From the NCBI GenBank assembly GCA_028711905.1, contig JAQTRI010000054.1:1-13389 (forward strand): a DNA stretch of 13,389 nt. The letters are read 5' to 3'. Source of the DNA: Candidatus Wallbacteria bacterium (GTDB taxonomy: Bacteria; Muiribacteriota; JAQTZZ01). Under the pieces are notes generated by a model, which saw only the letters and a list, made by a program, of their open reading frames with translations, ran no database searches and was not told the origin of the DNA. A program made the translations under genes and the position numbers. This document shows positions 3,996 to 4,172 of this stretch, in pieces (within the stretch, counting starts at the first letter, position 1; each line of letters starts with the position of its first letter).

Positions 3996-4172
3996 ATGGC
4001 TGACAAAAAATCCTTTCTGCTGCGCCTGGATCCGAAAATAATGGCGGAACTCGAAGCCTGTGCGGCTTCTGAGTTCCGCAGTATCAACGGCCAGATCGAA
4101 TACCTGCTCAAACAGGCTATCGACAGGCACAAATCCAAACCTGAAAAGCCCTGTCTCGACCGGAAGGGTTGA
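3996..4172 (+). CDS. Arc/Mnt-family ribbon-helix-helix DNA-binding protein, 58 aa. It is missing from the supplied ORF track.
   Basis: The translation is MADKKSFLLRLDPKIMAELEACAASEFRSINGQIEYLLKQAIDRHKSKPEKPCLDRKG. The core aligns position-for-position with phage P22 Arc (qFnLRwPrevldlvrkvAeengRSvNsEIyqrvmesf) at F-L-R-(L/W)-P, A, R-S-x-N-x-(E/Q)-I and the hydrophobic helix B. The ATG lies 1 nt after the SPFH stop (TGAaATG), indicating translational coupling. Its stop lies 14 nt before the ankyrin gene start. Confidence 0.65.
   Translation: MADKKSFLLRLDPKIMAELEACAASEFRSINGQIEYLLKQAIDRHKSKPEKPCLDRKG

Follow-up and report, generated by a model that had tools for sequence, protein, structure and literature searches.

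A small gene behind an SPFH gene

The DNA considered here, referred to throughout as the window, is a stretch of 13,389 nucleotides (nt) from a Candidatus Wallbacteria bacterium (GenBank assembly GCA_028711905.1, contig JAQTRI010000054.1, positions 1 to 13,389 of the forward strand). Within it, a 58-codon reading frame at positions 3996-4172 lies between a gene for an SPFH-domain membrane protein and a gene for an ankyrin-repeat protein, and its product is predicted to be a small DNA-binding protein of the ribbon-helix-helix (RHH) type (Table 1). By its conservation, this frame is a genuine RHH gene. It is constantly paired with an SPFH gene, and the pair is preceded by an array of three short palindromes that overlaps the predicted promoter; we propose that the RHH protein represses its own operon by binding there. 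A first-pass annotation made from the letters alone had already recognized the frame and its ATG start, and had placed it between the two neighbours, as Pfam matches to both confirm. The partnership with SPFH and the conserved operator, which are the main point here, were absent from that reading.

Table 1. Positions of the features in the window and layout of the RHH protein; promoter and operator entries are predicted.
Feature	Position	Strand	Description
Sigma-70-like promoter of the SPFH-RHH operon	2984..3012	+	-35 TTGACA 2984-2989; 17-nt spacer; -10 TAATAT 3007-3012
Operator subsite 1, TGACATCA	2985..2992	.	7/8 matches to TGATATCA; overlaps the -35 element
Operator subsite 2, TGATATCA	2996..3003	.	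Perfect palindrome; within the promoter spacer
Operator subsite 3, TAATATTA	3007..3014	.	6/8 matches, symmetric changes; overlaps the -10 element
Shine-Dalgarno sequence AGGAGG	3030..3035	+	5 nt before the SPFH start codon
SPFH/Band_7 membrane protein gene	3041..3994	+	317 aa; Pfam Band_7, E 9.6e-28; hydrophobic N-terminus; first gene of the operon
RHH gene	3996..4172	+	58 aa, 58 codons; ATG start; product MADKKSFLLRLDPKIMAELEACAASEFRSINGQIEYLLKQAIDRHKSKPEKPCLDRKG
Ankyrin-repeat protein gene	4187..6865	+	Pfam Ank families; signal-peptide-like N-terminus; 14 nt past the RHH stop
RHH protein layout (AlphaFold)			Extended residues 1-12 (strand ~5-11); helix 13-25; turn EFRS; helix 30-47; disordered tail 48-58

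A word-indexed protein search with the RHH protein returned 481 relatives of 55-75 amino acids (aa), and an exhaustive profile search over clusters at 50% identity found 3,123 of them with E<=1e-3, of which 1,451 reach E<=1e-10. Across 145 diverse representatives, R10, R28, S29 and L38 are invariant, and K5, L9, W22, A23, N31, Q33, E35 and A41 are at least 90% conserved. Among orthologous genes (n=55), nucleotide differences are distributed 31%/18%/51% over codon positions 1/2/3, and this excess at the third position indicates that the frame is coding and under purifying selection. The thousands of homologues, the invariant motif, the third-position bias, the conserved synteny and the confident RHH-like model described below all speak against a chance open reading frame (ORF), a vanishingly improbable reading that conservation refutes, even though the frame is short and two longer mechanical ORFs overlap it on other frames. 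These two (4060..4308 on the forward and 3806..4138 on the reverse strand), which the first-pass annotation had dismissed as spurious, are both present in the mechanical ORF list, and it was only the 60-aa cut-off of that ORF track that caused the RHH gene to be overlooked there. Codon usage, by contrast, does not discriminate between gene and chance ORF. The codon-preference score of the RHH frame (0.15) falls within the range of its neighbours (0.12-0.24), as had been claimed, but the overlapping antisense ORFs fit equally well (0.12 and 0.18), so that codon usage carries no weight for the frame.

By direct reading, the SPFH stop codon TGA (3992-3994) is separated from the RHH start codon (3996-3998) by a single nucleotide, and no Shine-Dalgarno sequence stands ahead of the RHH ATG. 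The gap is thus as the first-pass annotation described it; the translational coupling it asserted would fit both the gap and the missing Shine-Dalgarno sequence. Codon 22 of the RHH gene is TGT (4059-4061) and encodes a Cys where 135 of the 145 representatives have Trp; it is the sole Cys among the 145, and a Thermus homologue also carries Cys at this position. As TGT differs from TGG by one base, codon 22 may reflect either a true substitution or an assembly error.

The RHH protein had been described as unannotated, but an identical 58-aa protein is present in NCBI nr as 'Arc family DNA binding domain-containing protein [Candidatus Wallbacteria bacterium]'. Orthologues carry the names "Arc family DNA-binding protein", "toxin-antitoxin system HicB family antitoxin" or "hypothetical protein" in the NCBI annotation pipeline (PGAP) and RefSeq. 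A search against RHH profiles, named beforehand as a test of the gene, gave RHH_5 (PF07878) as the best Pfam match (E 2.9e-4, 20.9 bits vs a gathering threshold of 26), followed by further sub-threshold matches to HicB (E 2.3e-3), ParD_like (E 5.9e-3) and Arc (PF03869; E 0.21, 11.9 bits vs a cut-off of 20.4). Of the 25 aligned relatives, every one reaches E<=0.01 with RHH_5 (best 4.9e-7), whereas only two match the Arc model. Precomputed PF07878 assignments exist for most homologues, including relatives at 55-70% identity, which places the window protein in one homologous family with them, low as its own score is. On these profile matches, RHH_5 of the clan Met_repress is the best-supported family for the protein; of the proposed Arc/Mnt-family RHH assignment, the ribbon-helix-helix part is supported and strict Arc/Mnt membership is not. 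We know of no characterized member of RHH_5, and membership as such says little about function.

The residue-by-residue alignment to P22 Arc that the first-pass annotation had drawn was reproduced in the same register by hhalign, with modest support. F7, L9 and R10 pair with F10, L12 and R13 of Arc, and R28-S29-x-N31 pairs with R31-S32-V33-N34, at E 7e-4 with a 25-sequence profile (probability 26%) and E 2.5e-4 with the 145-sequence profile (probability 43%); the P22 Arc sequence used was checked against the PDB. The alignment to Mnt is weaker (E 2.8e-3, probability 11%).

The predicted fold is of strand-helix-helix, RHH-like type. An AlphaFold model built from 145 aligned sequences has a predicted local distance difference test score (pLDDT) of 84 overall and of 94-95 over residues 11-40. 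The N-terminus is extended; in a monomer model, DSSP cannot assign the beta-strand. In Foldseek searches of the PDB, the top matches of the model were AmrZ, Arc, CdbA, StnY, CopA-SO, CopG, MatP and the RHH domain of PutA, with probabilities of 0.97-1.0 for the top ~20 and target-normalized TM-scores (TMt) of up to 0.9 (0.81-0.88 for AmrZ). The top ~40 matches are all RHH proteins except for one designed beta-alpha-alpha protein. The E-values are weak, as expected for 45 residues.

A conserved operon headed by three palindromes

A scan of one genome per species found an RHH relative in at least 588 species, and 80 loci were retained. They come from Acidobacteriota, Verrucomicrobiota (including Akkermansia muciniphila), Bacteroidota, Bacillota, Planctomycetota, Beta- and Gammaproteobacteria, Actinomycetota, Chlorobiota, Fibrobacterota, Eisenbacteria and Spirochaetota, more than ten phyla in all. 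In 78 of the 80, an SPFH gene 41-75% identical to that of the window lies directly upstream on the same strand, so that the conservation of the small ORF at the amino-acid level holds in the loci of relatives, again beside SPFH. One of the two exceptions is a locus truncated 60 nt upstream, and the other keeps only what appear to be the last SPFH codons. In most loci, 3-20 nt separate the two genes. The nearest relative (60% identity) likewise forms a Band_7 and RHH_5 pair, among unrelated neighbours, and the pair recurs in RefSeq records of Parabacteroides, Bacillus thuringiensis, Deinococcus, Qipengyuania and Prevotella, with the first gene named "SPFH domain-containing protein".

This synteny also bears on a prophage origin of the gene, in which it would be a phage immunity repressor of Arc/Mnt type. 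The reproduced register to P22 Arc and Mnt, the place of Arc among the best structural matches and the NCBI name 'Arc family' all point that way, yet the Arc Pfam match is under threshold, and no phage genes lie nearby: where an immunity region would hold ant, arc and mnt, the neighbours are cellular genes. Only three weak matches were found in 50,697 phage records and one SPFH-RHH pair among the viral contigs examined. With a cellular SPFH gene as constant neighbour in 78 of 80 loci, synteny contradicts such an origin, and we consider it highly improbable. Three unannotated 'Bacteriophage sp.' records from human faeces do contain an RHH homologue. The one pair on such a contig (IMGVR_UViG_3300029387_000027, viral or a putative prophage; positions 3245-4448) comprises two exact TGATATCA sites 11 base pairs (bp) apart at 3245, an SPFH gene at 3364-4299 and an RHH gene at 4305-4448.

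A conserved element emerged when the 200 nt preceding the SPFH start codons were aligned. The octamer TGATATCA occurs exactly within this interval in 68 of 78 loci, at a density of 4.36 per kb compared with 0.0135 per kb elsewhere in the same loci (~320-fold enrichment). A weight matrix anchored on the octamer reads TGATATCA-nTn-TGATATCA-nnn-TGATATCA, that is, three 8-bp palindromes with a start-to-start spacing of 11 bp, about one helical turn, and the array ends a median of 45 nt before the ATG. When the ~8-kb loci were scored for triple sites (maximum 24), 77 of the 78 had their best score inside the 200-nt stretch ahead of SPFH; median scores were 20 there and 14 elsewhere. Among spacings of 8-15 bp, only 11 bp scores high (20 vs 13-15). 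In the window, all three subsites lie over the promoter, which is predicted from a consensus match alone (10/12 positions); subsite 1, TGACATCA, corresponds to position -11 of the cross-phylum matrix. Elsewhere in the window, a second exact TGATATCA occurs at 4405-4412 inside the ankyrin gene without flanking subsites, and near-matches are at chance level (7 found vs 5.0 expected).

The array goes with the start of the whole operon, of which the RHH gene is the last, rather than with the 5' end of SPFH, as seen in an Actinomycetota metagenome-assembled genome (MAG; L020, 474-3525) in which it heads a four-gene operon of ABC ATPase, ABC-2 permease, SPFH and RHH genes. Counting this case, the array precedes 78 of 78 SPFH-containing operons. 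It is kept in such distant pairs as those of Deinococcus, an alphaproteobacterium, Prevotella, Nonomuraea and B. thuringiensis. In other lineages, a -35 element lies 13-15 nt before the central site, which itself forms an extended -10 element (TGaTATCAt); the array is there offset by one site relative to the promoter and still covers it. It is also present in Bacteroidota loci; Bacteroidota promoters differ from the sigma-70 consensus. As judged from these alignments, the SPFH-RHH operon and its predicted control region are conserved across more than ten bacterial phyla.

The remaining neighbours in the window do not share this conservation. The ankyrin gene, whose likely start read from the sequence is ATG 4187, is preceded by a Shine-Dalgarno-like GGGGA, and no terminator-like site was found between 4172 and 4187; the gene is probably co-transcribed with the RHH gene in the window. 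Homologues of the ankyrin gene and of the window's AAA gene are nevertheless found in none of the 80 loci. The ankyrin gene is outside the conserved module, and as a neighbour of the RHH gene, noted in the first-pass annotation, it is incidental. Among PADLOC models, the ankyrin protein hits the candidate PDC-M72A (E 6.8e-33) as well as a generic Ankyrin model, matches that probably reflect its repeats only. The PADLOC defence models gave no match to the SPFH or RHH protein, and the AAA neighbour gave only a generic ATPase match.

In ~12 loci, an extra gene of ~160-195 codons for a small membrane protein stands between SPFH and RHH. These genes are of a bPH-like type (L005, L007, L029, L035, L042, L066), a type of Bacteroidota and Chlorobiota (L038, L055, L067, L069) or DUF1648 (L033); among tested examples, one matches bPH_5 (bacterial PH domain, E 1.7e-6) and others DUF1648 or, weakly, DUF6141. 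The inserted gene is an optional third component of the operon. In one long-read MAG (L011, 4001-5692), the RHH frame runs stop-free for 563 codons. A 563-aa RHH fusion was considered and set aside, as the extension resembles the antisense of a downstream gene, making a lost stop or an assembly error likelier.

Just upstream of the SPFH promoter, at 2867-2921, the window holds three tandem copies of a 17-19-nt unit, CCTGACCCCCCACCTGGTG (two exact, one 79%). Within the window, the 16-nt core of this unit is confined to these copies; none of 200 shuffles reached three matches. Between the AAA gene and these repeats lies a short forward ORF (2674-2871; MGVSFGKFRSKEARNLAIYKAHVQHGYLLKEIAQFLGTHYSTVSKAFLKS...) with weak helix-turn-helix matches, among them Bac_DnaA_C (E 1.5e-3, sub-threshold). 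The ORF resembles what is left of the C-terminus of a transposase-type or DnaA-C-like helix-turn-helix protein, and it is not conserved in related loci. No RNA family of Rfam was found in 2600-4300.

Proposed auto-repression and its alternatives

A repeated palindromic operator that overlaps the predicted promoter of its own operon is expected of an auto-regulated RHH repressor, and this is the arrangement found here. We think it likely that the RHH protein represses the SPFH-RHH operon, with as many as three dimers binding cooperatively across the promoter. Each dimer would insert a two-stranded beta-ribbon (KSFLLRL) into the major groove of one palindrome; three dimers aligned on one face of the DNA would occlude RNA polymerase, and through this negative feedback the amount of SPFH scaffold in the membrane would be kept within limits. 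We name the RHH protein as candidate binder because it is the only predicted DNA-binding protein always co-inherited with the array. The palindromic 8-bp subsites fit, indirectly, a two-fold symmetric binder. Arc, Mnt, CopG, AmrZ and MetJ bind as arrays of dimers on tandem or palindromic subsites, and Arc half-sites are ~11 bp apart. We infer the identity of the binder, the stoichiometry of three dimers and repression rather than activation.

Several observations weigh against this interpretation. Those on the protein begin with the family assignment: all Pfam matches of the window protein are under the curated thresholds, an NCBIfam scan gave no match, and searches of the PDB by sequence (with the single sequence and with two profiles) returned no significant RHH match, Arc included. 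The top hits in these searches were chance matches to chromobox and acyl carrier proteins, and an Arc-family chain appeared only at E 0.83 in a profile search. A first AlphaFold run with a shallow alignment of 25 close homologues gave an all-helical model, since superseded by the 145-sequence run. With Cys at the Trp22 position, the stability of the window protein could differ from that of its relatives. On the side of the operator, a Thermus plasmid homologue behind an ABC transporter has no TGATATCA array within 3 kb, and an orphan RHH copy (L053) also lacks the array. The beta-strand residues and the operator are both near-invariant, so that no covariation links them. An unrelated phage element likewise has two TGATATCA sites 11 bp apart, so that the bare pattern is not unique to the module, and conservation of the central site could stem in part from its extended -10 role (TGnTATCAT) in some lineages.

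The Thermus case, on a plasmid of Thermus thermophilus (L201), has the RHH homologue directly behind the ABC transporter genes with no SPFH gene; taken with the Actinomycetota operon described above, it hints that the RHH family is linked to ABC-2 transporters in some lineages. The phage element emerged when viral contigs were searched with TGATATCANNNTGATATCA. Most hits belong to this element, in a putative replication gene, and the SPFH-RHH pair was found only in the putative prophage contig; the search is uninformative on operator specificity for the module. A family of viral contigs among L081-L200 carries four GATATCA units with an 11-nt period in the conserved context ...ctcattggctggaacaagaTGATATCAgcgTGATATCAgaacGATATCAaagtGATAg..., and in one of them (L116) the array (2379-2420) lies inside an ORF (2116..2826, 236 aa) that is replication-initiator-like. 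Origin iterons can lie inside the initiator gene, as in lambda O, and the L116 array resembles this arrangement. The viral GATATCA arrays are unrelated to the SPFH-RHH module.

The array could instead be bound by another regulator, for example a widespread host factor, or be mere promoter architecture, with the RHH protein regulating something else. The link between RHH protein and array is, after all, one of co-inheritance only, the central site doubles as an extended -10 element in several lineages, and array-less homologues exist. Promoter architecture alone, however, cannot explain three identical palindromes at exactly 11 bp, and the array is retained across phyla that differ in promoter type and in their sets of regulators, as well as on plasmids and a single viral contig; in the Actinomycetota case, it moves with the operon head. 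Fur boxes have a 6-bp hexamer or 7-1-7 layout, which the 11-bp periodicity does not fit, although this comparison is unscored. We therefore rate binding by another regulator, or by none, as improbable.

A somewhat less improbable alternative, to which we nonetheless give little credence, holds that the RHH protein mainly contacts the SPFH protein, either neutralizing or controlling it in the manner of a toxin-first type II pair such as hicAB, or being sequestered by it at the membrane. In that case the scaffold's state would govern DNA binding, which is compatible with auto-repression. The strict pairing and the 1-20-nt gaps, suggestive of translational coupling, would suit such a role, as would the PGAP name 'toxin-antitoxin system HicB family antitoxin' on some orthologues and the weak HicB and ParD_like matches. 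Moreover, identity of 45-60% across phyla is unusually high for a small repressor and would fit a second conserved interface. The protein is, however, barely more than a DNA-binding fold: its tail past residue 47 is predicted to be disordered and is unconserved, beyond this tail it has no ligand- or partner-binding domain, and no toxin-binding domain is recognizable. Neither gene has a PADLOC match, and instead of a toxin gene the partner is an SPFH/Band_7 gene. SPFH proteins are not known to be toxins, which counts against an antitoxin-like reading.

A broader version of the auto-repression model, which we offer as speculation and think rather unlikely, is that operator, SPFH gene and RHH gene form an ancient, self-contained and horizontally mobile membrane-state circuit in which the assembly state of the SPFH scaffold, co-translated with the RHH repressor, would decide whether that repressor is captured, set free or degraded. 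If so, membrane stress would lead directly to derepression of the operon, with a logic like that of PspA-PspF or of membrane-sequestered repressors, and the RHH protein would represent a new class of SPFH operon partner beside NfeD.

The gene itself belongs to a known fold class and was already annotated by the NCBI pipeline, and it illustrates that a 60-aa ORF cut-off hides real genes. Its wider interest could lie in the module. For most SPFH subfamilies of prokaryotes neither a function nor a partner is known, and here one subfamily has a dedicated, near-invariant putative repressor and a near-invariant triple operator in more than ten phyla, among whose carriers are gut Bacteroidales, Akkermansia, the Bacillus cereus group and Deinococcus. 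If auto-repression holds, loss of the RHH gene or mutation of the palindromes should raise SPFH expression, which offers a simple experimental handle, and the inducing condition could be found with a reporter. The RHH protein and its defined 8-bp site would also make a compact, portable candidate repressor-operator pair.

Relation to known regulators and SPFH partners

Searches of the accessible literature for SPFH together with ribbon-helix-helix, Arc or CopG, for the paired PGAP product names and for a TGATATCA operator returned nothing relevant, and the operator-SPFH-RHH module is apparently undescribed there. The logic of a small auto-repressor is, by contrast, conventional. At the level of the protein, the window product shares its size and its strand-helix-helix layout with Pfam RHH_5. 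With Arc, Mnt and AmrZ it shares the fold (Foldseek probability 1.0, TMt 0.73-0.88), an F-x-L-R strand and R-S-x-N at the start of helix B, but the Gly of the G-x-S turn in Arc is replaced by Phe or Leu in the window's family. The operator logic, predicted for the window, likewise resembles what is generally known of Arc, with dimers on subsites about one helical turn apart, although the Arc operator has two half-sites within 21 bp rather than three 8-bp palindromes. In addition, Arc is a phage protein, whereas the SPFH-RHH pair is cellular and joins the regulator to a membrane protein gene.

CopG- and MetJ-type regulators are small RHH dimers that polymerize along short repeats over the promoter of their own operon. 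The met-box of MetJ is an 8-bp palindrome repeated in tandem, abutting at 8-bp spacing, and MetJ requires a co-repressor. The SPFH-RHH array differs in its 11-bp spacing, and no ligand site is evident in the RHH protein. Beyond the clan, neither CopG nor MetJ has a detectable sequence relationship to the window protein, CopG being among its structural matches. RHH antitoxins (the C-terminal domain of HicB, ParD, CopA-SO, AtaR and TacA) resemble it in structure, in weak profile matches and in their auto-regulated two-gene operons. They differ in that the window protein has no toxin-neutralizing domain and that its partner is an SPFH scaffold, no known toxin.

On the side of SPFH, a 2009 survey of prokaryotic SPFH operons assigned NfeD partners to SPFH1, SPFH2 and SPFH5, with no conserved identifiable partner for the other subgroups, and it mentions no RHH, Arc or CopG partner (PMC2636767); nor does a 2026 survey of SPFH proteins in Pseudomonas (PMC13086221). 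FlotP of B. anthracis, which was also checked, is an SPFH protein of another, flotillin type and is partnered by NfeD. A parallel to the arrangement described here is found in the NfeD/STOPP partners of stomatin- and flotillin-like SPFH proteins, which likewise are encoded by a small gene constantly co-operonic with SPFH; NfeD, however, is a membrane protein, whereas the RHH partner is a cytoplasmic, predicted DNA-binding protein.

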